Part shown: positions 1,753 to 16,252 of the stretch, one piece after another
Numbering within the stretch: the stretch's first letter is position 1
Layout of the letters: every line of letters begins with the position of its first letter
Assembly (NCBI GenBank): GCA_947373745.1
Contig: CANBZB010000001.1
Location: 2,230 to 66,229, forward strand
Length of the DNA: 64,000 nt
Direction: 5' to 3'
Source of the DNA: Burkholderiales bacterium
Lineage (GTDB): Bacteria; Pseudomonadota; Gammaproteobacteria; Burkholderiales; Burkholderiaceae_C
Notes under the pieces: model-generated
Seen by the model: only the letters and a program-made list of their open reading frames with translations
What the model was told of the DNA's origin: nothing
Database searches by the model: none
Position numbers and translations under genes: made by a program

Positions 1753-4700
1753 ATGGCAGTTATTAATACCAACGTCAAAGCATTGTTTTCACAGATGGCT
1801 TTAAACACATCTGGCCGTGCACAAACTGTTGCCATGCAACAGTTGTCTACGGGCAAGCGTATCAACTCGGCTAGAGATGATGCAGCCGGCATGGCAATCG
1901 CAACACGCATGACCCACCAAATTCGCAGCTTGAACCAAGCCGTGCGCAATGCGGGTGATGCGATCTCCTTGATCCAAACCGCTGAGGGTGCGACCAACGA
2001 AATCACAGACATGATGCAACGCATGCGTGAATTGGCTATCCAAGCAGTCAACGACACCAACGATCCACAACAACGTGGTTACTTGGATTTGGAATTCCAA
2101 CAACTCAAACAGCAAATTGTCCAAATTGCCGACAACACGGAGTGGAACGGGTTCCCTGTGTTGAACGGTAAAGCTGGTGAGCAAGTAGGTGAGATGCCTG
2201 TTTACAAGGCCACATCTAATAACCAGTATGGCGACGTATTGTTGAGCCCAACTACTACTCGAGTGATCGAGGGCACTGCTTCTGGTGAGCAGCAAACCAT
2301 TACTTTTGATACAACGGCTATTCCTGCAACTGCTTCAACCATAGAGACTGCGGCAGTAACTTTCCCAACAACAAGTTTGGCTGCAGGAGATTCGATCACT
2401 GTAGCTGGGTTAACTTTCACAGCGACTGCTGCAGTAACAAAATCTCAAATGGGCGATGCTTTCGCTTCACTCGCGAATGGTGCAACTACCGGAGCAAGCA
2501 CTTTAGGTACATACAGTGGAACATTCTCTGGATATACCTCAGGTACCAATACGGCAGGTGTCGTAACTTTCACCAGTGTGGCCCGTGGAAATGTGACCAA
2601 TATTGCATTGAGTGGTTCAGTAACCGCTCCTACTGCAGCCGTTACAGCAGGTGTTTCAGCCACTGGAGGATTTACCGGCACGCGAACATTTAATTTCGCT
2701 GGCGAAACGATCAATTTGCAGTGGGATGCCATTAAGAAGACAGATGAGTCAGGCGTGGATTCTGCGAAGCTGTTGGCTCAAATCAAACAGCAATTGGAAT
2801 CTACAGATAAGTTTGGTACGGGTTCAGGTCGCTCAGTCGCTATCAGCGGAACGAGCTTAGTTTTGACATATGCTGCCAAAGACCAAGATGTCGCAGCTGC
2901 TCAATTAGTAGATGCATCGAACGACGGATTTTTCAAGGTCGGTACGGTTGCTGTAAGTCGCAATGCCATTACGCAAACGGATGAAAACTTTGACAACAAC
3001 GGACGTTTCCTGCGTAGCGGAAACTTGGTTATTGAGCATACCGACACGAATAATGACGGTAGCTTGGATATCAAGGCTGTGTTTACTACCCCTGATAACA
3101 AGAGCGTCAATTTGACGGGTACTTTTGACAGCACCAAAGGCACTGTCAAATTTTTGAAACAAGACGGCATCAACAGTACGGTTATCTCAGACAACCTTAC
3201 TTATGTCATGAAAGACCCTAATGGATCTCCCTTGGATGGAGTTGCATTGGAAAAAAATCTGAATTTACGTAACTTCAAATTGTCAGTTGACGTATCAGGC
3301 AGCATACCTGCGATGCGTGCTGGAGATTTGTTGATTAACGGCGTCGAAATTGGCGGATCTTTTGCAACAGACGATCCTTATTCACCCATCAACAACGCCA
3401 ATGGTTCTGCTATTGCTAAAGCTGCGGCGATCAATCGCAAGGCTTCTGAAGGCAGCGGTCCTGTTGGTGAGTCGCAAGCCATTACCTTCTCGGGTACGCC
3501 TATCCCAGGTGTGATTACCGTGGGTGGTGTCAGCGTTGAACTCACAGCGATGGAAAACACGCCAGCTTTGGCCGTCGCAAAAATTGCAGAAACGATGCGC
3601 AACAGCGCCCAGTTTGGTCAGGGTTCCGGCCGTACGGTTAATTACGCCCCTGGAAGCACCATCATTGGTGTGGACTTTCCCGTCACGGATGGCCAAGTCA
3701 GTGCGATCGACGTGCAGCAACGCGATACCAATTTAGCCAGCGTGACCGATACAACGCGCCAATACAGCTCATCCTCTGCAGGAACTGGCGTATTTGCCAA
3801 GGTGAATGAGAACATCTTCACCGGTAAAGCTATGAGTGGCAATTCTGTTGTCTCAGGCGTTGTATTTATCAACGGTTATGCGTCAGCAAAAATTGAGACC
3901 TTGATGAACAACCCGCGTGATACCCGCGCCAATGTTGTGCGAGCTATCAACCTCATCAGTGACAAAACTGGCGTTGTTGCCGAAGACACAGGTTCAGACC
4001 AATTAGGCGTGACCTTGAAAGCGGCTGACGGCCGTAATATTGAAATTACTTTTGAAACAACCGCTATTGCAAGCGACTTCGGTAACCGAATTGGTATGCG
4101 CGAAGGTGTACAAAGTTCAACCATCTCTTTGGAATCGAAAATTCCAAACGCAGTTGTACTGTCAAGCTCTGCGGTCGGTGACATTTCTCGCGTAGGCTTA
4201 CTCGAAGGAAACTACAGTAAAAATCAAGCAGTGGTCAATTCGAAGGAACGTCCTTTGGTTGATCCATCTGTTAAACAAGTCAGTAGCGCAGCGTTTACTG
4301 GCCCAGCGTTAGTGGGTGATAAATTCACGCTTGTCGTAAACGGCACTGAACACAGCATTACTGCAACAGCTGGACAAACAACACAATCGTTACGCGACGC
4401 AATGGTGACCAAGTTTGCAGCTGACAACGATCAAAACGTCGAAGTTTTGGCAGGTAATACAGTGGGCGAATTCGTCATCCGTGCCAAAACACCAGGACGC
4501 TCTTTCACGGCTGCTACGGCCATGGTGCCCACCACTGGTTCAACTGCAACGGTTTCTTCTGTGAAGACGGTTGTTGCAAATCAGATTGCCCAATTCAAAG
4601 CCTTAGGTGCGGATGACTTAGAAATCAATGGAATAAAAATCCGTGCTACCAATAATGCAGACGATATTTACTCTAACCAAATTGCAAGCAGCAGCAATCC

Positions 4701-6216
4701 AGCGGCCAGTGCCATTGCGATGGCCAAAGCAATCAATACACACACACCAGAAACTGGTGTGCGTGCGATAGCTAATCCCGTAGTATTGAAGGGAAGTTCA
4801 ACTACAACTGGTTCAACCCAGTTGGCAACCTGGGATGCGGCGCCAAATACAGTGAAAGCTGTGAACGAGCCTGTAGGTATTCAGTCTCTCTACCTCAACG
4901 GTACGGAAATCAAGGTTGAGTTCAAAAAGGATGACACGCCCGCTGAACGCCGAATCAATTTAGTTAAAGCTGTCAACACATACAGTGGAACCCACGGCAT
5001 AGTAGCTACCGATAACGGTAAGGGACTCACGCTAGAAGCGACAGATGGTCGAAATGTTTCAGTCTGGTACGACGCCAGTATTGAAGGTTTATCGCCTGCA
5101 AGTTTCGGATTGGATGAGGGCAGTGCCCAAAGTCAAATCTCTAAAGTCAAAATCGGCGGATCATCAGTTAGCACGGGCGATACAGTGACCGTACAAATTA
5201 ACGGCACGACGATCACCACAACAGCAACTTCTGGTGTCACAACGCCAGCCGCAATGGCTACTTTGTTGATGACCGCCATCAATGCCAAGGTGTCTGCAAG
5301 TATCACTTTGGACGCAGACCCTTCTACTTTGGCATCTGCTAAGACACATATGAGCAATTTGATTGCTTATATTGACCCCAACGACTCAACTGCAGTGTTA
5401 GTGCAGTCAAAAGTTCCTGGCTCACCATTCGTCATGCTCGGTGCTTCATCCACGGATGATGCCCAAACTGTCTCCATGGGAACCGTCCAAGAAAACAGTT
5501 TTGGCAATAACCAGATCACCGGTATCGTCGGTGCAACTGAGTCATCCAGCGAAGCGCGTACGGTGTATGGCACCGTTCGCATGATTGCTGAACCGGCACA
5601 TTTGCCAGCGCTGCCTTCCACAGACGGCAAAGCACCTAATTTGACGGGTGTGTCTGGTAAACCAATCAGCATCAACGTCGGTGACGATGGTTTCAGCTCT
5701 GCTAGCAACTTCTCTGACCTAGGCTTCTCTGTGGGAACCTTTGGCGGTCGTTCAAGCTCTGAGATGGATCCACCGCGCGTCGGACGACTGGCCTTCCAAG
5801 TTGGATCATCGGCTCGCCAAATGGTGACCATCGACTTGGCCGACTTCGGTAAAGGCGGACCCATCACTGGTGAAATCACGGGCGACGTAGACAAAGCTGT
5901 TGAGAACCGTACTGTGCGTATCAATACCCGCGACGGCGCAACTGCAGTTTTGAACTTGCTCGACGAAGCGATGGACAAAGTCAACGCAACCCGTGCCACC
6001 ATGGGTGCTGTGATGAACCGTCTAGACCACGTGATCAACAACCTGACCAACGTGTCTATGAATATGTCTGCTTCACGCAGCCAGATTGAAGACGCAGACT
6101 ACGCTTCTTCTTCTACTGAATTGGCCAAAACCCAAATCATGCAGCAAGCAGCGACTGCGGTGTTGGCGCAAGCGAACACCAGCCAACAGTCAGTCTTGAA
6201 GTTGTTAGGTAACTAA
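1753..6216 (+). CDS. fliC: Giant flagellin, 1487 aa
   Basis: N-terminal MAVINTN...LSTGKRINSARDDAAG...AEGA and C-terminal RATMGAVMNRL...SRSQIEDADYA...QQAATAVLAQAN are canonical D0/D1; ~1150-aa central region with repeated 'ING' (flagellin IN-type) modules. Confidence 0.97.
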   Translation: MAVINTNVKALFSQMALNTSGRAQTVAMQQLSTGKRINSARDDAAGMAIATRMTHQIRSLNQAVRNAGDAISLIQTAEGATNEITDMMQRMRELAIQAVNDTNDPQQRGYLDLEFQQLKQQIVQIADNTEWNGFPVLNGKAGEQVGEMPVYKATSNNQYGDVLLSPTTTRVIEGTASGEQQTITFDTTAIPATASTIETAAVTFPTTSLAAGDSITVAGLTFTATAAVTKSQMGDAFASLANGATTGASTLGTYSGTFSGYTSGTNTAGVVTFTSVARGNVTNIALSGSVTAPTAAVTAGVSATGGFTGTRTFNFAGETINLQWDAIKKTDESGVDSAKLLAQIKQQLESTDKFGTGSGRSVAISGTSLVLTYAAKDQDVAAAQLVDASNDGFFKVGTVAVSRNAITQTDENFDNNGRFLRSGNLVIEHTDTNNDGSLDIKAVFTTPDNKSVNLTGTFDSTKGTVKFLKQDGINSTVISDNLTYVMKDPNGSPLDGVALEKNLNLRNFKLSVDVSGSIPAMRAGDLLINGVEIGGSFATDDPYSPINNANGSAIAKAAAINRKASEGSGPVGESQAITFSGTPIPGVITVGGVSVELTAMENTPALAVAKIAETMRNSAQFGQGSGRTVNYAPGSTIIGVDFPVTDGQVSAIDVQQRDTNLASVTDTTRQYSSSSAGTGVFAKVNENIFTGKAMSGNSVVSGVVFINGYASAKIETLMNNPRDTRANVVRAINLISDKTGVVAEDTGSDQLGVTLKAADGRNIEITFETTAIASDFGNRIGMREGVQSSTISLESKIPNAVVLSSSAVGDISRVGLLEGNYSKNQAVVNSKERPLVDPSVKQVSSAAFTGPALVGDKFTLVVNGTEHSITATAGQTTQSLRDAMVTKFAADNDQNVEVLAGNTVGEFVIRAKTPGRSFTAATAMVPTTGSTATVSSVKTVVANQIAQFKALGADDLEINGIKIRATNNADDIYSNQIASSSNPAASAIAMAKAINTHTPETGVRAIANPVVLKGSSTTTGSTQLATWDAAPNTVKAVNEPVGIQSLYLNGTEIKVEFKKDDTPAERRINLVKAVNTYSGTHGIVATDNGKGLTLEATDGRNVSVWYDASIEGLSPASFGLDEGSAQSQISKVKIGGSSVSTGDTVTVQINGTTITTTATSGVTTPAAMATLLMTAINAKVSASITLDADPSTLASAKTHMSNLIAYIDPNDSTAVLVQSKVPGSPFVMLGASSTDDAQTVSMGTVQENSFGNNQITGIVGATESSSEARTVYGTVRMIAEPAHLPALPSTDGKAPNLTGVSGKPISINVGDDGFSSASNFSDLGFSVGTFGGRSSSEMDPPRVGRLAFQVGSSARQMVTIDLADFGKGGPITGEITGDVDKAVENRTVRINTRDGATAVLNLLDEAMDKVNATRATMGAVMNRLDHVINNLTNVSMNMSASRSQIEDADYASSSTELAKTQIMQQAATAVLAQANTSQQSVLKLLGN

Positions 6217-6642: not shown

Positions 6643-8097
6643 GTGATTGCTTCTTCTGTCAACGTTATTCATGCCGTGTGGTTGGACCCATTTAGTCCGA
6701 TCGACGACGCAGATCGCGCCCAGCTAGATGCCGCCGGCATCAGCTTGGAAACTGTTCGTACCCTTGGTGAGCTCACGCTGGCATTGCGCCGCGCGCACAT
6801 GTTGGTCATTCGCTTAGGCGATAGCGCCGAGTTGTTGCAAGAGGTCCAAACGCTCATCGGCCAACTCGGTAACACCGTGCCTGTGCTGTGCCGCGTAGAC
6901 CGCCGCCGTATGGAAGTCGCTGTTGACGCCATGCGTTTAGGTGCATTGCATGTGTTGCCTGCCGACGAATGGACGCCCGCTATTTGGCAAGAAGCGGTGC
7001 AAGGTTTGAATTCCCCAGAACTCACTACTAAGAGCTATGTGTTCGTAGACCCAACTAGCCAACACTTGCTGGCATTGGCACAACGCGTCGCGCAAACTGA
7101 AGTCACCGCTTTATTAGTTGGCCCAACCGGCGCTGGTAAAGAAGTCTTAGCCCGTGTGTTGCACGAATCATCTCCACGCGCCAAAGGCCCGTTTGTAGCC
7201 TTGAACTGCGCAGCGATGCCAGAGCATTTGATCGAAGACATGTTGTTCGGTCACGAGAAAGGCGCTTTTACTGGCGCTTTGAAAGAACACAAAGGTTTGT
7301 TTGAACAAGCCGAAGGTGGCACGATTTTCTTGGACGAGATTGGTGAGATGCCAATGAACTTGCAAGCCAAGTTATTGCGCGTCTTGCAAGAGAAAAAACT
7401 CAACCGTTTAGGCGGTGAGGCATTGATCGACCTGAACGTGCGTGTCATCGCTGCCACCAACAAAGATTTAAAACTGGCGATCGAGCAACGCGAATTCCGT
7501 GAAGACTTGTATTTCCGTATCAGCACATTCCGCTTACGTATTCAGCCTTTGAAAGACCGTCCAGGCGACATCATGCCTTTGGTCATTCAATCGTTGTCAC
7601 GCCACATCAAAGGGGGCTTGCCTTTCACGGTGTCACCCGAAGCCCAAGCCATGTTGGCGAGCTACCCGTGGCCCGGCAATGTGCGTGAATTAGAAAACGT
7701 GGTGCAACGCGCCGTCGTGTTGTGTGGTGGCCGTGTGGTCACTCCAGCACACGTGATGTTTGACGATGCGGGTTTAGACGACCAAGCAGGTTACGCCAGC
7801 CAAATGGAAAACCTCGCGCAAACGATGCCTGCCGTCTCATATGCGCAGCCAACGTATACACAACCCACTTACGCGCAACCCGCGTCAAGTGCACCGATTG
7901 AAATTCGCCCGACTGAAACCCCTGTGAACTTAGAGCACGCCGTGATGGTGAGCGAACAACAGGTGATCATGGCTGCGATCCAAAGTACCGACAGCCGCAT
8001 GGAAGCGGCTGCCAAGTTGGGTATCAGCCCACGCACATTGCGCTACAAGCTCGCACAACTGCGTAGCCGTGGCATGACAGAAGGAGTCGCCGCATGA
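6643..8097 (+). CDS. sigma-54-dependent flagellar activator (FleR/FlrC/FleT/LafK position) with degenerate receiver domain
   Basis: GPTGAGKE Walker A, HEKGAFTGA, FLDEIGEM Walker B, REDLYFR, WPGNVRELEN, C-terminal HTH AAAKLGISPRTLRYKL; directly upstream of fliE. Confidence 0.92.
   Translation: MIASSVNVIHAVWLDPFSPIDDADRAQLDAAGISLETVRTLGELTLALRRAHMLVIRLGDSAELLQEVQTLIGQLGNTVPVLCRVDRRRMEVAVDAMRLGALHVLPADEWTPAIWQEAVQGLNSPELTTKSYVFVDPTSQHLLALAQRVAQTEVTALLVGPTGAGKEVLARVLHESSPRAKGPFVALNCAAMPEHLIEDMLFGHEKGAFTGALKEHKGLFEQAEGGTIFLDEIGEMPMNLQAKLLRVLQEKKLNRLGGEALIDLNVRVIAATNKDLKLAIEQREFREDLYFRISTFRLRIQPLKDRPGDIMPLVIQSLSRHIKGGLPFTVSPEAQAMLASYPWPGNVRELENVVQRAVVLCGGRVVTPAHVMFDDAGLDDQAGYASQMENLAQTMPAVSYAQPTYTQPTYAQPASSAPIEIRPTETPVNLEHAVMVSEQQVIMAAIQSTDSRMEAAAKLGISPRTLRYKLAQLRSRGMTEGVAA
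7840..7881 (+). repeat. 15-bp tandem repeat encoding YAQPT-YTQPT-YAQP linker
   Basis: tatgcgcagccaacg / tatacacaacccact / tacgcgcaaccc between the AAA+ and HTH domains. Confidence 0.65.
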
Positions 8098-8435
8098 TCG
8101 ATCGAATTTCTAATGCCAACGTCCAGTCCATGCTGGAGGTTTTGCGCAGTTACCAATCCCAAGCGACGGGTGGTGCAGGTTCAACCACTGAACCAGCGGC
8201 TACCAAAGTAGGCCAACCCACGTTTTTTGACTCCGTTAAAAACGCACTCGACAAAGTCAACGACACAGACAACAAAGCTGGCGCGTTGTCGGAAGCCTAT
8301 GACCGCGGCGAAGAAGTGCCCCTCACCGAAGTGGTGTTGAGCATGCAAAAAGCTTCTCTGGCTTTTGAAGCCACCCTCCAAGTACGCAACAAAGTGATGA
8401 AGGCGTACGAGGAAATCATGAACATGCCGGTTTGA
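8094..8435 (+). CDS. fliE: Flagellar hook-basal body protein FliE
   Basis: EVVLSMQKASLAFEATLQVRNKVMKAYEEIMNMPV signature. Confidence 0.96.
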   Translation: MIDRISNANVQSMLEVLRSYQSQATGGAGSTTEPAATKVGQPTFFDSVKNALDKVNDTDNKAGALSEAYDRGEEVPLTEVVLSMQKASLAFEATLQVRNKVMKAYEEIMNMPV

Positions 8436-8455: not shown

Positions 8456-10546
8456 ATGGCTACAGACACTCTCAATATGAACGCGATGACCTTGCCCTCG
8501 GGCCAGGCATCTGACAACGCCGCCTCTGCTGGCGCGGGCAATGCCACCGGCACAGCTCTCAAAGTAGATGGCGCTAAATTACCCGCATGGATCAATTCCA
8601 AAGAAGGCCCTGGCGCTTTGGTGATGGATGTATTGCGCCAACCCAGCGTGCGCAAAGCATTGCCTTTTATGGTGATCTTCATGCTCTTGATGTCAGTCGC
8701 GGTGTTCTTCACCTCGATGAAGCCTACGCCTTACCGTCCTTTGGTGTTGATGCTCAATGACGCAGACAAGCAAATCGCGATTGAAACCTTGAAGACTGCA
8801 GATTTCAAGCCGGAAGTAGATCCATCCACAGGTCAGTTGTCTGTTCCCACTACCCGTTACCAAGAAGCCCGCATGTTGTTGGCTTCCAAAGGTTTGCCAC
8901 GCACAGAAGTCTCTGGCATGGACAACCTCAAAGATATGCCCGCCATGACCACCAGCCAGTTTATGGAACAGGTGCGCTATAACAATGCGATGGAGCAAGA
9001 GCTCTCACGCAGCATTGTGCAAATCGGCGGCATCAAATCTGCTCGTGTGCATTTGGCCGCGCCTAAGCAAAGTGTGTTTGTGCGTGACCGTGCACCTACC
9101 AAAGCATCGGTGATCATCACCCGCTTGCCTGGCCGCACGATTTCTGCAGCCAATGTGCAAGCGATCATTCAATTGGTCGCTTCCAGCGTGCCTTATTTGG
9201 CACCTGAGAATGTCTCTGTGGTGGATAACTTTGGCAGCTTGATGAATGAAATGTTGGTTGAGCAGCCATTAGGTTTGACTTCTGCCCAGCTCACACAAAA
9301 GCAGCAGATGGAAGACCTCTATCGCACGCGTTTGATCCAGTTGTTGGCACCTATCGTGGGTGAATCGAATGTCAGCGCACAAGTCAGCATGACTTTAGAT
9401 TTCACACAAACTGAAGTCACTACGGAAGACTTTGACTCACAAGACAAAGGTCCTAAGACCCGTTCTGAACTCTTCGTAGAAGACCGCAATACATTGCGCG
9501 ATGCGATTGGTTTGCCAGGTTCTTTGGCCAATACGCCTCCTGCGCAGAACAATCCACAAGCTACGACCCAATCGAACTCAGACCCCTTAAAAGGTGTGAG
9601 TGAAAAAGGCGTGCAAGTGACTGCGCGTAGTACCAAAAACTATGAACTCGACCGCTCGGTGCGACACACCAAAGGTGCGATGGGCACGATTACCAAAATT
9701 GGTGTGGGTGTGTTGATCAATGAGCGTCCTATTCCTGCTGGCACCAAGATTGAAAAGCCTGCCGATGGCTCTGCACCACCGACATCGGTTCCTTACACAC
9801 CTGAAGAATTAGACCGTTTGAACCAGTTGGTCAAAGGCGCTGTGGGTTTCAACGAAACACGTGGTGACGTAGTGACGGTTGTGGCAACCAAATTTGAACC
9901 CCAGTTCGATCCATCGATCGTGCCTTGGTACCGTGATGAAAACTACCAAGTGATGGTCAACGCAGGTGTAGTCGGTTCTATCTTCTTACTCGTCTTGTTG
10001 CTAGTGGTGCGTCCGATGGTGCGTCGACTCACAGCGCCTGAGGTGGACCCAGCTGCTGTAGCTGCCGCTGCTGCCGAGGCTGCAAATGCTGAAGCCAAGA
10101 TGGCGATTGAGGTGGCCACTGCAGAATCCGCTGCCGCAAAACTATCTGCCCAGCAAGCCCGTGAAGCCCACGAAGCAGAAATCGCAAGAATTGCAGAAGA
10201 AGCGATGTTGGCTGCACAAGAAGCCGCACGCTTGGCAGAAGAAGCGCGTATCGCTGCGATTGCCCAAGCCGAAGCGGAGGCCGCAGCCGCGAAAGCTGCC
10301 GCCGAAGCAGCGCTAGCCCAAGTCACTGGCGAAGGGGAAACTGAAGAAATTGAAATTCAAGAAGGCGAGTCCTTAGAAGAAGTAAAAGCCCGTATGGCCG
10401 CTATGAAACCTAAGAAACAGTCCATCTCTGCTGATTTGCTCAACACTGCAAATTCTTATGATGACAAAGTCGCTTTGATTCGTATGATTGTGGCTGAGGA
10501 CTCCACCCGCGTGGCTGGCGTTCTTAAGAACTTGATCCGTCAATAA
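8456..10546 (+). CDS. fliF: Flagellar MS-ring protein FliF with extended Ala/Glu-rich cytoplasmic tail (696 aa)
   Basis: Two TM segments; EQELSRSIVQIGGIKSARVHLAAPKQSVF, TKASV, LVASSVPYL.PENVSVVD, NYELDR, LVKGAVGFNETRGDVVTV motifs. Confidence 0.96.
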   Translation: MATDTLNMNAMTLPSGQASDNAASAGAGNATGTALKVDGAKLPAWINSKEGPGALVMDVLRQPSVRKALPFMVIFMLLMSVAVFFTSMKPTPYRPLVLMLNDADKQIAIETLKTADFKPEVDPSTGQLSVPTTRYQEARMLLASKGLPRTEVSGMDNLKDMPAMTTSQFMEQVRYNNAMEQELSRSIVQIGGIKSARVHLAAPKQSVFVRDRAPTKASVIITRLPGRTISAANVQAIIQLVASSVPYLAPENVSVVDNFGSLMNEMLVEQPLGLTSAQLTQKQQMEDLYRTRLIQLLAPIVGESNVSAQVSMTLDFTQTEVTTEDFDSQDKGPKTRSELFVEDRNTLRDAIGLPGSLANTPPAQNNPQATTQSNSDPLKGVSEKGVQVTARSTKNYELDRSVRHTKGAMGTITKIGVGVLINERPIPAGTKIEKPADGSAPPTSVPYTPEELDRLNQLVKGAVGFNETRGDVVTVVATKFEPQFDPSIVPWYRDENYQVMVNAGVVGSIFLLVLLLVVRPMVRRLTAPEVDPAAVAAAAAEAANAEAKMAIEVATAESAAAKLSAQQAREAHEAEIARIAEEAMLAAQEAARLAEEARIAAIAQAEAEAAAAKAAAEAALAQVTGEGETEEIEIQEGESLEEVKARMAAMKPKKQSISADLLNTANSYDDKVALIRMIVAEDSTRVAGVLKNLIRQ

Positions 10547-10576
10547 CACCGAATAATTTAAGTTTAGGACTACACC

Positions 10577-11611
10577 ATGGCTGATATCAATATGGGAATG
10601 ACGGAGGCACTACGTGCTGAGATGGCCAACATTACCTCTACCCAACGTGCGGCAGTTTTGATGTTGCTCTTGGGCGAAGAACAAGCGGCTGACATCATTA
10701 AATTTTTGAATCCCAAAGAAGTACAAGCTTTGGGCGCTGCGATGGTGGCTGCGGCAGACTTTTCGCAAGAAGCTGTCAACGTGGTGTTGGACGAATTTGT
10801 AGACCACTTGAAGAAGCAATCTTCTTTGAGTATGGGTAGTACCGACTATGTAGAAAACGTGATGCGCCGCGCTTTAGGCGACGACAAAGCAGCGTCTGTG
10901 TTGAACCGCATCATGCCAGGACAAGCTAGCAAAGGCTTAGAAATTTTGACGTGGATGGATGCCCGTGGCATTGCAGACATGATCAAGGCGGAACATCCAC
11001 AAGTGGTCGCCATCATCTTGTCATTATTAGAGGCCACCGTGGCAGCAGATGTTTTGAATTTTCTACCGCCCGAATCACGCGCAGAAGTGATCCAGCGTGT
11101 CGCTAGTTTAGACACCGTGCAACCTTCGGCCATGGCTGAACTAGAAGGCATCATGAAGATGCAGTTCTCTAAGAGCGCATCGTCACAGTCTTCAAGCTTT
11201 GGCGGCGTAGAAGCTGCTGCCAAGATCATGAACTTGACCAAGACCGCTTTGGAGTCCAGCATCATGAATGGTTTGAACGAGATCGACCCAGAGTTGATGC
11301 TCAAGATTCAAGACAATATGTTCACCTTCGAGAGCTTGGTAGGTGTGAACAACAAAGGTATTCAGGTACTCATGCGCACTGTTGAGCCTGACATGCTGAT
11401 GGTGGCTCTTAAAGGTGCAAGCCCAGATTGCCAAGCCCGCTTTTTTGACAACATGTCTGAACGCGCGCGTGGCATGTTCCGTGACGATATGGAAGCCAAA
11501 GGCCCACAACGCATGTCAGATGTGGAAGAAGCACAAAAGAAGATCATGCGTATGGCCAGACAGTTGTCTGACTCTGGTGAATTGGTGCTAGGTGGCGGCG
11601 ACTATGTATAA
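10577..11611 (+). CDS. fliG: Flagellar motor switch protein FliG
   Basis: QRAAVLMLLLGEEQAA, EHPQVVAIIL, MFTFESL, NMSERA...DDME...SDVEEAQKKI. Confidence 0.97.
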   Translation: MADINMGMTEALRAEMANITSTQRAAVLMLLLGEEQAADIIKFLNPKEVQALGAAMVAAADFSQEAVNVVLDEFVDHLKKQSSLSMGSTDYVENVMRRALGDDKAASVLNRIMPGQASKGLEILTWMDARGIADMIKAEHPQVVAIILSLLEATVAADVLNFLPPESRAEVIQRVASLDTVQPSAMAELEGIMKMQFSKSASSQSSSFGGVEAAAKIMNLTKTALESSIMNGLNEIDPELMLKIQDNMFTFESLVGVNNKGIQVLMRTVEPDMLMVALKGASPDCQARFFDNMSERARGMFRDDMEAKGPQRMSDVEEAQKKIMRMARQLSDSGELVLGGGDYV

Positions 11612-13040
11612 CCATGTGGTTGCAAAGCGCTCAGGCATTGCTTGGCAGCCCGGATCTCAGCTGCACTTGCGTCGTTCTGAGTTGGGGTATGACACGACTG
11701 CTTGGGGCGAAGACACGCCGCAAGAATTTTCTGATGCGCCGTATCCGGAAAATCCAGATGGCTTCGCCACCGATGCGTATACATCGGTTACGCAAACACT
11801 GACTGAACAAGCCAGGCTGTCTTTGGCCTTATTGCAAGAGCAAGAGGCACAAGCGAGTTTTGATAGCAACCTGACGCCTGCGAAAACAAGTGCATCTGTG
11901 AATGCGCATTTGCCTTTTGTGATGGACGATTACGCTGCAGCAAAACGCATCAAGGTTTTGTTAGCAAAAGGTTTACTAGATAAAACTAGCACAGGACGGT
12001 TCGTAGATGATCTGTTCGTTACAAAAACTGGTTTTAAATCGGACGGCGAAGAATTGAATACACCGCCAACGCACTTGGAGGCTACACAAGAGGCCCTAGA
12101 TGCAGTGTTGGACGACGCGGACGCGGTACCTGAGCAAACTACCGAAGAACAGCAAGAAGAGCTGGGAGTTGTTGCAGAAGTCAGTGGTATTTCTTTAGAA
12201 GAAATCGTGCAACGCGAACAAGCGCAGTTTGCCAAAGGGCTGGCCCAAGGAATGGAAGAAGGGAAGTCTTTAGGCTTTGAACAAGGTAAGACGCAAGGCA
12301 TAGAAGAGGGCAAGGCGCTAGGCTTTGAAACAGGTAAAGCGCAGGGCATTGAGGAAGGTAAGGGCCAAGGTTTAGAGGAAGCTATACAAGAGGCGTTAGA
12401 AAAAGGTAAAGCCCAAGGTCTTGAGGAAGGAATCGCCCAAGGCATAGCGCAAGGCGAACGCCAAGCCCGCGAGGCAATGGAGCAAGAAGTCGCGACGCAA
12501 TGCGAGGTGCTCTCGCAGGTGGCAGAAGGCTTGCATGACTTGCTACAAGACCCTCAACGGTTTTTTAATCCATTGAAGCGCTTGGCCATGCATATGGCGC
12601 AGCATATTGCTAAGCATGAGTTGAGTATTTCACCGCAAGCAATCGATGCGTTGGTGCAAAACTGCTTGAATGAACTAGACCACCCCATCAAAGGCGCGGT
12701 GGTAGTGGAGCTCAATCCACAAGATAAAAAATTACTAGAAACGTTGGCTACAGCTAATTTACAGGGTGTACACCTAGAAGCTGTGCCCCAATTGACGTCT
12801 GGCAGTGTGCGCGTGATTGCCAACGATATGGTGGTGGAAGACTTGATAGAAAACCGGCTTGAAGCTTTGGTCAAAAGTTTGGCGCTCCAAGAAGTCGCAC
12901 CCCGTGCAGCAACACACATAGAAGCGGAGCTTCAAAAGGAATCTACGGAATCTTCTGAAGAAATATCTTTTGAGCCGTCTTTTGAGGCCGACGAACAGAT
13001 TAAAAAAGATGATGGAGAGGTAGAAGATGTTCATTCCTGA
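11604..13040 (+). CDS. fliH: Flagellar assembly protein FliH, unusually long (~478 aa)
   Basis: GxxxG repeat tract (KGLAQGMEEGKSLGFEQGK...), C-terminal VELNPQD...LTSGSVRV; ATG at 11604 overlaps the fliG stop; lies between fliG and fliI. Confidence 0.85.
   Translation: MYNHVVAKRSGIAWQPGSQLHLRRSELGYDTTAWGEDTPQEFSDAPYPENPDGFATDAYTSVTQTLTEQARLSLALLQEQEAQASFDSNLTPAKTSASVNAHLPFVMDDYAAAKRIKVLLAKGLLDKTSTGRFVDDLFVTKTGFKSDGEELNTPPTHLEATQEALDAVLDDADAVPEQTTEEQQEELGVVAEVSGISLEEIVQREQAQFAKGLAQGMEEGKSLGFEQGKTQGIEEGKALGFETGKAQGIEEGKGQGLEEAIQEALEKGKAQGLEEGIAQGIAQGERQAREAMEQEVATQCEVLSQVAEGLHDLLQDPQRFFNPLKRLAMHMAQHIAKHELSISPQAIDALVQNCLNELDHPIKGAVVVELNPQDKKLLETLATANLQGVHLEAVPQLTSGSVRVIANDMVVEDLIENRLEALVKSLALQEVAPRAATHIEAELQKESTESSEEISFEPSFEADEQIKKDDGEVEDVHS
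12256..12360 (+). repeat. 48-bp tandem duplication within the FliH GxxxG tract
   Basis: EEGKSLGFEQGKTQGI / EEGKALGFETGKAQGI / EEGK; boundaries approximate. Confidence 0.6.
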
Positions 13041-13674
13041 CGTCATCAATACTTTATTGATGGGTTTGATTTTCATGGTCATTGTGGTGACCGTGGTACG
13101 CCCGTTTGTGCTGCACATCGTCAACGGTTCAATGTCCACGGAAGACTTGCAAAAAGAAGCGATTGAAACCGTTCAGCAAGAAATGATGCGTGTCAGTATT
13201 TTGGCTGAAGCGCAGCGCAACGAACAAATTCGCTTTCAGCAATTGCTCTTAGAAGTTCCAGAAAAACCAAAACCCAAACCAGTCCCTGAAATCGATCTGG
13301 AGGCGGAAGAAGCCAAGGCCAAAGAAGAAGCAGAGGCGCACGCACAAGCGCTGGCCGATGCGGCAGCCGCTGAAGCGCAAGCAGCAGAGGCAGTTGAAGA
13401 ATCTGCGGCTGAAGGCGAGGAATCCATCGCAGAAGGCGAAGCGGTAGAAGAAACAGCAAGCACCGAAATTGTGATGCAAGAAGGTGAGTCATTGGCTGAT
13501 GTGAAGGCGCGTATGAAGCGCGAACAAGCCAAAGCCAAGAAACCCACGATTCCGCCAGAGTTACTGAACAACGCCAACAGCTACGAAGACAAAGTAGGCG
13601 TGGTGCGCATGGTGGTGCAAAATGACCAAAGCCGCGTGGCCAGCGTGATCCGCAGCATGATCCAAACGCAATAA
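13027..13674 (+). CDS. Stand-alone paralogue of the FliF C-terminal region (TM + FliG-binding tail), 'mini-FliF'
   Basis: G.IF.....VVRP.V TM motif and the last ~62 aa align to this locus's own FliF; GGAGAGG RBS; ATG overlaps the end of fliH. Confidence 0.88.
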   Translation: MFIPDVINTLLMGLIFMVIVVTVVRPFVLHIVNGSMSTEDLQKEAIETVQQEMMRVSILAEAQRNEQIRFQQLLLEVPEKPKPKPVPEIDLEAEEAKAKEEAEAHAQALADAAAAEAQAAEAVEESAAEGEESIAEGEAVEETASTEIVMQEGESLADVKARMKREQAKAKKPTIPPELLNNANSYEDKVGVVRMVVQNDQSRVASVIRSMIQTQ

Positions 13675-13692: not shown

Positions 13693-15012
13693 ATGCTTGA
13701 TTTCGCACAAGAAGTAGAGACCACGCTAGAGCAATTGCGCGTGCCAGATCCGCAACGTAGCGGCACCTTGGTGCGCTTAGTAGGTTTGACATTAGAGACC
13801 CGCGGCATCATGGCACCTTTGGGTGCGTGTTGCGAAGTGATAGGTCAACATGGCCATCGCATTGAGGCCGAGGTAGTCGGATTCAATGACCGCACTTTGT
13901 ATTTGATGCCGTTCACAGACCCTGTGGGCGTAGGTCCTGGCGACATGGTGCGCGTGATGCGCAACTCAGGCCAAGTCCGTTTGGGTGATGGCTTATTAGG
14001 CCGAGTGATTGATGGCCGTGGACAACCTTTAGATGGTCGTCCTTTGCCTGAATTACCAGACCAAATGACATTGTTTGGAAGTCCGCTCAATCCTATGGAG
14101 CGTGGCCCGATCAAATCAATTTTGGATGTAGGCGTGAAGGCCATCAACTCTGTATTAACAGTGGGTCAAGGCCAACGCATTGGTTTAGTCGCTGGCTCTG
14201 GTGTGGGTAAAAGTATTTTGCTCGGCATGTTGACCCGCTTTACCAAAGCCGACATCGTGGTGATCGGTTTGATTGGTGAGCGTGGCCGCGAAGTGCAAGC
14301 ATTTATCAGTGAATCGTTGGGAGACGAAGGTTTGGCGAAGTCTGTGGTGATTGCCGCACCTGCGAACGTTTCTCCTGTCTTGCGACTCAAAGCCACGCAC
14401 ATGACCCATGTGGTCGCAGAATATTTTCGTGACAAAGGCTTGAACGTGTTGATGCTGTGCGACAGCTTAACGCGTGTGGCCCACGCACAGCGTGAAATTG
14501 GTTTGGCGATTGGCGAACCGCCTACTGCCAAAGGTTATCCCCCATCTGTGTTTGCCTTGTTACCCAATTTGATTGAACGCGGTGGCGTTGGTAGACATGG
14601 CCACGGCTCGATCACTTCGATCTACACCGTGCTCGCCGAAGGTGATGACGCATCCGACCCCATCGTGGACATTGCCCGCGCATCTTTAGACGGACAAGTG
14701 ATGTTGTCGCGTACCCTAGCCGATCAAGCGCATTACCCCGCGATTGATTTGAATGGTTCAATTTCACGTGTGATGCAAACCTTGGTCGATAGCGAGTCAT
14801 TGCGCCAAGCCAATCGGTTTAGACGTTTATGGTCTGTCTACCAACAAAACGCCGACTTGGTACAAGTGGGTGCTTATGAAGCCGGAACCAATCCTGAGTT
14901 GGATGAAGCGATTCGCTTGCGCGAACAAATGGTGATGTTCTTGCGCCAAGACATGCACATCAGCGAAGACTACGACGTCTCCTTGAGTAACCTCAAACAC
15001 TTGATGTCATGA
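13693..15012 (+). CDS. fliI: Flagellum-specific export ATPase FliI
   Basis: AGSGVGKS Walker A, IGERGREV, DSLTRVAHAQREIGLAIGEPPTAKGYPPSV, HYPAIDL. Confidence 0.97.
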   Translation: MLDFAQEVETTLEQLRVPDPQRSGTLVRLVGLTLETRGIMAPLGACCEVIGQHGHRIEAEVVGFNDRTLYLMPFTDPVGVGPGDMVRVMRNSGQVRLGDGLLGRVIDGRGQPLDGRPLPELPDQMTLFGSPLNPMERGPIKSILDVGVKAINSVLTVGQGQRIGLVAGSGVGKSILLGMLTRFTKADIVVIGLIGERGREVQAFISESLGDEGLAKSVVIAAPANVSPVLRLKATHMTHVVAEYFRDKGLNVLMLCDSLTRVAHAQREIGLAIGEPPTAKGYPPSVFALLPNLIERGGVGRHGHGSITSIYTVLAEGDDASDPIVDIARASLDGQVMLSRTLADQAHYPAIDLNGSISRVMQTLVDSESLRQANRFRRLWSVYQQNADLVQVGAYEAGTNPELDEAIRLREQMVMFLRQDMHISEDYDVSLSNLKHLMS

Positions 15013-15446
15013 AACCCCGCGCAGCATGGCCCATCTTGGCAAAAAAAGCCAAAGAAAAGTGCGACCACGCCATGGCTGCTTTGGTCAAGGGTCGCGAAAA
15101 AATCAAAAACCTTGAACAAAGTCGCAACCGGATGGAAGCGCTTTATGCAGACTATCTGGCACGATCGATTGAAGCCGAAAAAAACTCGCTCAGCATGCAA
15201 GAGACGGTGAACTTTCGTGGATTCTTGCAACAAATACAAACTTTGATTAAACGTGTCGATGTTGACCTCCAACACGCTAAATTTGAGTTGGATGTTCTAA
15301 AAGGTAATTTGCTAGCAGCAGAGAAAAAACGCATCCAAATGGACACCTTGCAAGAGCAAGATGAGCGGCGAGTGAGAGTTGCCGCGGCTAAGCGGGAACA
15401 ACGCGCTATGGATGCTGCGGGTGTGATGCTTTTTAATATGAAGTGA
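15009..15446 (+). CDS. fliJ: Flagellar export protein FliJ
   Basis: 145-aa coiled coil after fliI with NFRGFLQQIQ and KREQRAMD; 4-bp overlap. Confidence 0.85.
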   Translation: MKPRAAWPILAKKAKEKCDHAMAALVKGREKIKNLEQSRNRMEALYADYLARSIEAEKNSLSMQETVNFRGFLQQIQTLIKRVDVDLQHAKFELDVLKGNLLAAEKKRIQMDTLQEQDERRVRVAAAKREQRAMDAAGVMLFNMK

Positions 15447-15499: not shown

Positions 15500-16252
15500 T
15501 TATCTTGGTGTTTGCCATCCCGCTTGCAACCAATGCCAATAGTGGGGTTTGAATTCCCAAGGAATGAGGGTGGTGGGCGTGTCGTCCGCAAATACGTGTG
15601 AAGTCAGGTGGTCAAACCACACGCCTTGGGCTTGCAAGCTTTGCACCAAGGTTTGGCTGTAAGTTGCTTCCATATCTTTGGGATACGCGTTTTGCCGAAC
15701 GTTTTGTATGCGTGAATCTAGTGAATGTGTCTCTAGGGTGGGACCCGACAGCAAATCATGGACGCTGCCCCAATCACGTCCTTGCAGAGTGGTTTTGAGT
15801 CCGCGCAGTTCTTTTTCTACCCGCACTTCATCGCGGATGCGGTAGCGGTGTTGCCCCAATATATTGTCAAACCAGATACTGGCTTGTGGATGTTGTGCCA
15901 GTATTTCAGGCAGATGAACTATTGCATCTAGTCGATAGTGGGTGATTTGCGTGTGACTTTTGCGCAGAGCAGCGCCATGTCGCCAATTAAATAGGTGCTG
16001 GGCTAGTGGGTCAATGTCATAAGCGGCAATGTGCGTGAATTGCGTGAGCCATTCGGTGGGCATCATCCAACCCGCACTGCAACCCATCAAAAGCAAATGC
16101 GCATGACGCGGCTGGCAACGTAATAAAAAGTTTTCAATATGTGTAACGGTGGGATGCCAACGCTTGTGGGATCGGAAGGCATGCATATGCCAGTTCAGTC
16201 CACCAGTGCCACCTGCATCTACCAAGTCTTTGAATATTTCGCGCATTCCCAT
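15500..16252 (-). CDS. Hypothetical protein, SAM-dependent methyltransferase-like fold
   Basis: LLLMGCSAGW resembles motif I and IAAYDIDP motif II; family not certain. Confidence 0.55.
   Translation of the reverse strand: MGMREIFKDLVDAGGTGGLNWHMHAFRSHKRWHPTVTHIENFLLRCQPRHAHLLLMGCSAGWMMPTEWLTQFTHIAAYDIDPLAQHLFNWRHGAALRKSHTQITHYRLDAIVHLPEILAQHPQASIWFDNILGQHRYRIRDEVRVEKELRGLKTTLQGRDWGSVHDLLSGPTLETHSLDSRIQNVRQNAYPKDMEATYSQTLVQSLQAQGVWFDHLTSHVFADDTPTTLIPWEFKPHYWHWLQAGWQTPR

Follow-up and report, generated by a model that had tools for sequence, protein, structure and literature searches.

The DNA considered here (the window) is a stretch of 64,000 nucleotides (nt) from a Burkholderiales bacterium (GenBank assembly GCA_947373745.1, contig CANBZB010000001.1, positions 2,230 to 66,229, forward strand). 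It carries a polar-type flagellar cluster, and between the fliH and fliI genes of this cluster lies a gene that we call X (13027..13674, + strand, stop codon included). The open reading frame (ORF) of X translates into a 215-residue partial paralogue of FliF, consisting of a helix similar to the second transmembrane (TM) helix of FliF (TM2), a linker and a tail of the type that binds FliG. Upstream of X are genes for a sigma-54 activator (6643-8097), fliE (8094-8435), fliF (8456..10546, +, 696 residues) and fliG (10577..11611, +), the latter two identified by Pfam and NCBIfam, and fliH (11592..13040, +, 482 residues), which has a long N-terminal extension, a Pfam/NCBIfam FliH match on residues 254-433 and a 3' end that overlaps the start of X. 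Downstream are fliI (13693..15012, +; PF00006, PF18269), which starts 18 nt past the X stop codon, and fliJ (15009-15446), beyond which lie fliOPQR and flhB. The ATG of X overlaps the stop codon of fliH (13038-13040) by 14 nt and is found 6 nt downstream of a Shine-Dalgarno-like GGAGAGG (13014..13020, +) within the 3' end of fliH. A preliminary description of the window, made from the sequence alone, had claimed a translationally coupled 215-residue gene at this position, and the claim was borne out by the gene's own ATG, Shine-Dalgarno site and overlap. Together, the position in the operon and the start/stop overlap imply that X is probably co-expressed with the early structural genes. There was no need to invoke a frameshift fusion of FliH and X, an idea that was also weighed and dropped, since every orthologue carries its own ATG and Shine-Dalgarno site.

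Residues 1-33 of X (13027..13125, +) form an N-terminal TM helix homologous to FliF TM2, in which N8, L11 and P26 are invariant and R25 is nearly so. An AlphaFold2 (AF2) model based on an alignment of 66 orthologues, with a mean predicted local distance difference test score (pLDDT) of 71.7, places this helix at residues 3-33 with pLDDT above 90. It is followed by an X-specific membrane-proximal helix (residues 38-75; 13138..13251, +; AF2 helix 38-75, pLDDT 92-96), for which BLASTP detects no similarity to FliF and which has no counterpart in the FliF linker. Residues 76-147 (13252..13467, +), delimited by composition and by an indel-rich alignment, are first Pro-rich (PEKPKPKPVP) and then constitute an acidic Ala/Glu-rich linker; the linker has a net charge of about -21, variable length and low pLDDT. 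The remainder, residues 148-215 (13468..13671, +), is a FliF-C-type tail (EGESL...KKPTIPPELL..NSYEDKVGVVRMVV..RVASVIRSMI) recognized by both BLASTP and AF2, with modeled helices at 156-170, 177-182 and 186-214, the last at pLDDT about 82-84.

The homology between X and FliF extends over both ends of the protein. BLASTP aligns X 155-213 with residues 639-695 of the window FliF at 30 identities in 59 positions (51%, E=1e-14), and MAFFT gives 34 identities in 66 positions for the tail and 9 in 33 for the TM block; the 34 of 62 counted by hand in the preliminary description is close to these values. The spacing between the conserved Asn and the helix-ending Arg-Pro is the same in X and in FliF TM2 (N-x16-RP), with X N8...R25-P26 corresponding to FliF VN...VVRP, and this in-register alignment supports the earlier suggestion that the TM helix of X resembles TM2. 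In whole-genome searches, X residues 6-213 match the last ~200 residues of FliF. X is therefore equivalent to the part of FliF that begins at the periplasmic edge of TM2 and includes the C-terminus. The parent region in fliF (9938..10546, +; FliF 495-696), identified by the whole-length match and by the tree described below, comprises TM2, an Ala/Glu linker of ~110 residues and the FliG-binding tail.

At the level of domain models, X has no Pfam or NCBIfam match (E<=0.1), including FliL/FliO/FliH-type models. The ring-building domains YscJ_FliF and YscJ_FliF_C (PF01514, PF08345; FliF family TIGR00206), for which the window FliF scores 9.4e-51 and 1.6e-33, were not found in X by Pfam/NCBIfam searches, in line with the claim that it has no periplasmic ring-building motifs. 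In terms of FliF membership, the two TM helices of FliF are represented in X by one N-terminal helix (3-33), whose homology is to TM2 and not to the other, but X does possess the C-terminal two-helix tail homologous to the segment that binds the N-terminal domain of FliG (FliG-N). Alignment, phylogeny and domain searches thus uphold the interpretation of X as a stand-alone TM2 and FliG-binding-type tail lacking the domains of the membrane/supramembrane ring (MS-ring); the wider cytoplasmic ring (C-ring) that the preliminary description attached to it goes beyond what they demonstrate.

At 20 positions, X and Limnohabitans FliF have the same residue conserved in at least 80% of sequences: N and VRP in the TM helix, and L, KK, I, LL, NSY, DK, R, RVA and I in the tail. 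Another 7 positions are conserved in each protein but differ between them (from FliF to X: IS to IP, D to E twice, AL to G/M-V, I to V, S to Q). X retains a hydrophobic residue wherever the two terminal helices of FliF have one (YxDKVxxxRMxV...RVAxVxxxMI). No FliF or FliG entry was returned when PDB sequences were searched with either the X profile or the FliF tail; with the longer C-terminal half of FliF as the query, the FliF/X tail aligned weakly, below threshold, to the Vibrio FliF C-terminus (...VLKAVRALVANEPELAAQVVKNW).

X is a constant feature of the flagellar operon in Limnohabitans. Of the 80 loci that we fetched, 71 are Limnohabitans-type and 9 belong to Porticoccaceae/Cellvibrionales, the latter having matched only via full-length FliF tails. 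X is located between fliH and fliI in 71/71 Limnohabitans-type loci. All 20 clusters inspected in detail have the order fliE-F-G-H-X-I-J, and in 20/20 orthologues the ATG is preceded by a GGAG/GAGG-type motif. The related contigs, mostly from freshwater metagenome-assembled genomes, are labelled Limnohabitans, Comamonadaceae or Burkholderiales. Most genomes of the genus that match FliF also match X; among 36 sampled, five matched neither and six matched one only. Outside this group, there is no gene between fliH and fliI either in the 9 Cellvibrionales loci (9/9) or in 6 loci from five sister genera with a similar FliF tail; fliH abuts or overlaps fliI in all of these. The statement that canonical operons have no gene at this junction therefore held in 15/15 loci with the same FliF-tail type.

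Broader searches gave the same picture. A hidden Markov model (HMM) of X, with which we scanned 401 genomes representing 201 genera in the GTDB family of the window, found the combination of FliF and a short protein in Limnohabitans only; five other genera have a similar tail on a FliF of 613-624 residues and no X. In a profile search of 1.84 billion representative proteins, the 305 hits comprised some 15-20 clusters of full-length X, fragments and FliFs, whereas the 1313 short X homologues in a larger collection are unnamed, 'hypothetical' or bear a spurious VirB10-like label. The literature searched, Pfam, NCBIfam and the source names of homologues all agree with the earlier remark that no equivalent had been described. 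Five short library proteins (P0139, P0195, P0251, P0255 and P0269) join unrelated N-termini (dihydrolipoamide-dehydrogenase-like, TatB-like, Ldh_2-like pieces and others) to the tail of FliF or X. Chimeric assembly or faulty gene calling is the probable cause; the source was looked up for P0195 alone among the five, and it is a single 749-bp contig.

How did X originate? In a maximum-likelihood tree of the TM block and tail, all X sequences form one clade with a Shimodaira-Hasegawa-like approximate likelihood ratio test (SH-aLRT) support of 100 and a stem of 2.08 substitutions per site. This clade lies inside a clade of X and Limnohabitans FliF (SH-aLRT 100), with FliF of the sister genera and Cellvibrionales outside, and the branching within X broadly parallels that of FliF. 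The tree indicates that X probably arose by one duplication of the 3' end of fliF at or near the base of the genus, underwent a burst of change and was then vertically inherited. The monophyly of X within the joint clade indicates that there was no recurrent gene conversion.

Selection on X was assessed by pairwise Nei-Gojobori estimates of the ratio of nonsynonymous to synonymous substitution rates (dN/dS) for 146 species pairs. The values are 0.09 for the TM helix, 0.095 for the proximal segment, 0.12 for the tail and 0.16 for the linker of X, compared with 0.05 for the FliF tail and 0.04 for FliG. Although X changes at about double the rate of the FliF tail, it is clearly constrained. The preliminary description had conceded that an elevated dN/dS or absence from close relatives would speak against its proposal. 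Neither was observed: the ratios stay within 0.09-0.16, and X is present in every flagellated relative examined.

The length of X bears on its mechanism. Limnohabitans FliF is about 700 residues long, with ~110 Ala/Glu-rich residues between TM2 and the tail (window 10040-10330, FliF ~529-625), whereas FliF of the sister genera and Cellvibrionales, which lack X, is about 615 residues long with a spacer of about 45. The linkers of X and FliF are comparable in length and unrelated in sequence. Across 47 species, X ranges from 193 to 235 residues and the region of FliF from TM2 to the end from 175 to 250 (raw correlation r=0.70). Within a genome the two are often equal (203/203, 205/205, 214/214, 215/215) or nearly so (235/236). 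In one clade, an 11-residue indel in the Ala/Glu helix of FliF and an indel of ~11 residues in the Pro/Ser-rich part of X occur in the same lineages, and in one species there is a further deletion in both proteins. The correlation persists in independent contrasts on a tree of the FliF N-terminal part and FliG (r=0.76; 28 contrasts of the same sign versus 8 opposite), and none of 10,000 permutations reached as high a value. Gene conversion is an unlikely cause of the length match, because the linker sequences are not alike. The simplest reading of this covariation would be selection for a matched tether length, such that both tails reach the same structure from the same membrane.

A similar arrangement turned up in a second genus. 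The profile search also yielded complete proteins of 248-346 residues in which a linker connects four TM helices to a tail of the FliF type (Y: P0256, P0237, P0223; loci L126, G606:C1:957801-958592, and L123-L125). They belong to g270, a genus of freshwater Burkholderiales from another family of the same order, with genomes of 1.0-2.5 Mb. P0256 occurs on several independent contigs in a non-flagellar neighbourhood, and the 16 members of the P0223 cluster are labelled Burkholderiaceae or Pseudomonadota. In g270, 25/30 genomes match, and ~19 of these 25 have both a long-frame FliF-type hit (mostly 690-800 residues) and Y; FliF itself is elongated (688-797 residues), and there is no X at the g270 fliH-fliI junction. 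X and Y are alike in being membrane-anchored stand-alone proteins that end in a FliF-type tail and occur genus-wide beside an elongated FliF. Unlike X, Y has four TM helices unrelated to TM2 and is encoded away from the flagellar genes. Its linker has GPDGxP repeats as in g270 FliF, and its tail shares the RFLVSED motif of that FliF, which points to a separate recruitment, although with a tree of the 66 tail columns it was not possible to reject the alternative that X and Y go back to one ancestor (approximately unbiased test, p=0.58). In both genera, then, an elongated cytoplasmic spacer of FliF coexists with a free-standing membrane-anchored FliF tail, a pairing that g270 shows in almost all of its flagellated genomes.

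Two further observations concern these genera. X residues 172-180 (13540-13566) and the Y tails have the pattern KKP-x-I-x-x-E-L-L, and the FliFs of the X and Y genera read KK(S/Q)SIS-x-D-(L/M)L at the same site; the former may be a convergent or a shared signature separating free tails from FliF tails. The window also encodes a giant flagellin (1753-6216) of 1487 residues with ordinary N- and C-terminal flagellin domains, and flagellins of at least 1000 residues are found in other Limnohabitans, in g270 and in g206. Any link between giant flagellins and tail paralogues is imperfect, because X and Y are both missing from g206 despite its giant flagellins.

What might X bind? The C-terminal helices of Vibrio FliF, with which its tail aligns, are reported to be the segment that wraps around FliG D1 (PMC11087270, PMC6079021). 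In Salmonella, FliF residues 514-560 wrap FliG domain 1 (PMC11087270), and the last 36 residues of FliF form a co-folding 'stud' in FliG-N (PMC6079021). The genome to which the window belongs (90% complete) encodes one protein with a FliG_N domain, one FliF and a FliM, the last on a different contig (G000:C74:9544-10092). With a single FliG_N protein and a single FliF, there is no alternative FliG-like partner in this genome. The N-terminal domain of FliG (residues 1-105; 10577..10891, +; PF14842, 8.2e-36) is therefore the presumed common partner of the FliF tail and X. If the tail of X has kept its ancestral binding partner, a single FliG would serve both X and FliF.

These considerations lead to the following model. 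X would reside in the inner membrane via its TM2-type helix, with the N-terminus out and the C-terminus in, and its acidic tether of ~120 residues would present the two-helix FliF-C tail to the cytoplasm. There the tail would co-fold with the N-terminal domain of the cell's single FliG, just as the FliF tail does. As X has neither the first TM helix of FliF (TM1) nor the periplasmic ring-building motifs RBM1-3, it cannot be part of the MS-ring proper. We estimate at roughly 55% the probability that X binds FliG-N beside the FliF tails where the MS- and C-rings meet, providing an extra membrane anchor independent of the MS-ring. As a result, the FliG:FliF ratio could exceed 1, or a C-ring carried on unusually long FliF tethers could be stabilised. 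A stronger version, in which FliG subunits actually outnumber FliF subunits and the C-ring is larger than the MS-ring would template, is rather doubtful. Equally tentative is the general scheme in which a single FliG is held by both FliF and a free-standing FliF-tail protein on long, length-matched tethers, with g270 doing likewise through a different anchor and a larger C-ring as a possible outcome. The gene, its homology, origin and conservation, the purifying selection on it and the covariation of tether lengths are shown by the sequence comparisons, whereas FliG binding, a place in the rotor and any influence on the size of the ring are what we infer.

Several observations weigh against an additional anchor. 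The stem branch leading to the X clade is long (2.08 substitutions per site), and the fixed differences between X and FliF (IS to IP, YDDK to YEDK, AL to G/M-V, AEDS to Q-DQ) are likewise compatible with a changed specificity. The match in length is loose in some clades (e.g. 215 versus 175). A single-chain model of the FliF tail and FliG, which exploited the natural in-frame read-through (FliF tail, 11 codons, FliG; 27 paired rows plus FliG rows), had low confidence (mean pLDDT 61.6). Translational coupling of X is to fliH and not to fliF or fliG, and it says nothing about rotor stoichiometry. Finally, all cultured Limnohabitans have been reported to be non-motile, though flagellar genes are in the core genome (10.1101/839407).

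Among the alternatives, the one that fares best, while still unlikely, is that X is an assembly chaperone or holdase, which would co-fold with newly made FliG-N at the membrane until MS-rings become available and remain outside the finished rotor. Folding of FliG-N depends on the FliF tail, and in C. jejuni FliF and FliG have a mutually stabilising effect (PMC3760246), while in Vibrio FliG promotes MS-ring formation (PMC10941966). Judging from its operon position, X may well be co-transcribed with early genes, and the conserved X-specific membrane-proximal helix predicted by AF2 could bind another assembly factor. However, it is not obvious why a transient holdase should require a tether that varies in length together with that of FliF, or a conserved in-register TM2-type helix; passing FliG between equivalent tails would bring no clear gain, and the sister genera manage without X.

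It is improbable that X serves as a decoy, clutch or regulator competing with FliF for FliG-N and thereby keeping down the number of flagella or disconnecting the C-ring from the MS-ring. Such a role might fit the non-motile cultures of bacteria that nevertheless keep flagellar genes in their core genome (10.1101/839407). It would also be in keeping with the presence of the same binding module on X and FliF in a cell with a single FliG, and the diagnostic substitutions could tune affinity. Yet X is constitutively co-encoded and translationally coupled in a structural operon without separate control, the strong purifying selection on all flagellar genes suggests that the organelle works, and a competitor requires neither a TM2-type membrane anchor nor a length-matched tether.

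The long stem branch and the fixed differences from FliF raise the question of whether the tail was repurposed, only its helical scaffold being kept while the partner changed from FliG-N to, for example, the N-terminal extension of FliH, FlhA or a polar landmark. X does adjoin fliH, whose N-terminus is expanded in the same genus, and it has a conserved proximal helix of its own. We consider this very improbable, given that the hydrophobic pattern of both tail helices is kept and that the genome has no other FliG-like domain. In addition, mirror-tree partial correlations controlling for divergence are 0.73 between the X and FliF tails and 0.83 between the X TM helix and FliF TM2, values that are weak evidence confounded by phylogeny and saturation. 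As for X being a non-functional remnant of a tandem duplication, its nature as a fragment of a larger gene without an annotated family is outweighed so heavily by the intact ORF, ATG and Shine-Dalgarno site in every species and by a dN/dS of 0.09-0.16 across a genus whose FliG diverged to 70% identity that, with conservation in 71/71 loci, a decaying duplicate is excluded and the idea retains practically no credibility.

An additional FliG anchor accounts better than a chaperone, a decoy or a repurposed tail for the TM2-type anchor, the place in the operon and the coupled lengths. A structural anchor is favoured over a chaperone or decoy by the covariation of tether lengths and by the second genus that combines an elongated FliF with what appears to be its own stand-alone tail.

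The neighbourhood of X has some other peculiarities. fliF and fliG are in the same frame, 30 nt apart with three stops (TAA, TAA, TAG; window 10544-10576), and they are also in frame in 27 related loci. The N-terminal half of FliH (11592-12460) contains EEGKxLGFExGKxQG repeats at about 12234-12460 and has a weak Yae1_N match. The FliH open frames are 395-536 residues long in Limnohabitans versus about 290-400 in the sister genera, the extension having arisen in the same lineage as X. Between fliJ and fliO there is a 250-residue ORF (15500-16252, - strand) without a Pfam match; in Pseudomonas-type clusters this place is occupied by fliK/L/M/N.

The sizing of the C-ring and its fastening to the MS-ring are still debated. 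In the current view, the FliF tails act as a 1:1 template that sets the size of the C-ring. In C. jejuni a wider C-ring is achieved through a wider MS-ring (PMC12222027), as in high-torque motors (PMC11087270, PMC12222027). In Salmonella, 33 or 34 FliF subunits have been counted against 34 FliG, and a 33:34 mismatch has been proposed (PMC11087270). X offers a natural test case of whether FliG subunits can be held by something besides the MS-ring. If they can, a two-anchor rotor would be an exception to the one-to-one templating of FliG by FliF, possibly in connection with the giant flagellins of these genera. The FliF-C tail would then be a FliG-docking module that is portable, with at least one recruitment and probably two. 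Limnohabitans is a dominant genus of freshwater bacterioplankton, and X also bears on what its flagellar apparatus is and when it is used, given the core flagellar genes and the non-motile cultures.

How does X compare with known systems? Its closest counterpart is FliF itself, whose TM2 and FliF-C tail bound to FliG-N have been seen in T. maritima (5TDY) and in cryo-electron microscopy structures of the Salmonella C-ring. X is similar in its TM helix, its two-helix tail and the order TM-linker-tail, but differs in being a separate polypeptide of 215 residues without TM1 and periplasmic RBM1-3, in having a proximal helix that FliF lacks, and in the substitutions fixed in its tail. The closest functional analogue appears to be FlgV of Campylobacterota, a small membrane protein of 104-127 residues, encoded between flhG and fliA, that forms a ring at the MS/C junction as seen by cryo-electron tomography (PMC10655999). 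Both FlgV and X are small lineage-specific inner-membrane rotor accessories encoded in flagellar operons, the location of X being proposed. They are not related by descent: the published description of FlgV sets it apart, as FlgV has no FliF tail, whereas X is larger (215 residues), lies between fliH and fliI and derives from FliF. A precedent of another kind comes from Helicobacter pylori, where FlhX (HP1575) duplicates the C-terminal domain of FlhB as a protein by itself, which illustrates that the cytoplasmic C-terminal module of a flagellar membrane protein may also exist as a separate paralogous gene. FlhX differs from X in belonging to another protein family, in its export-switch role and in having no parent-type membrane anchor. 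We found no description of a stand-alone FliF tail in the literature searched. Set against these systems, X is a known docking module in a new form, separately encoded and membrane-anchored.

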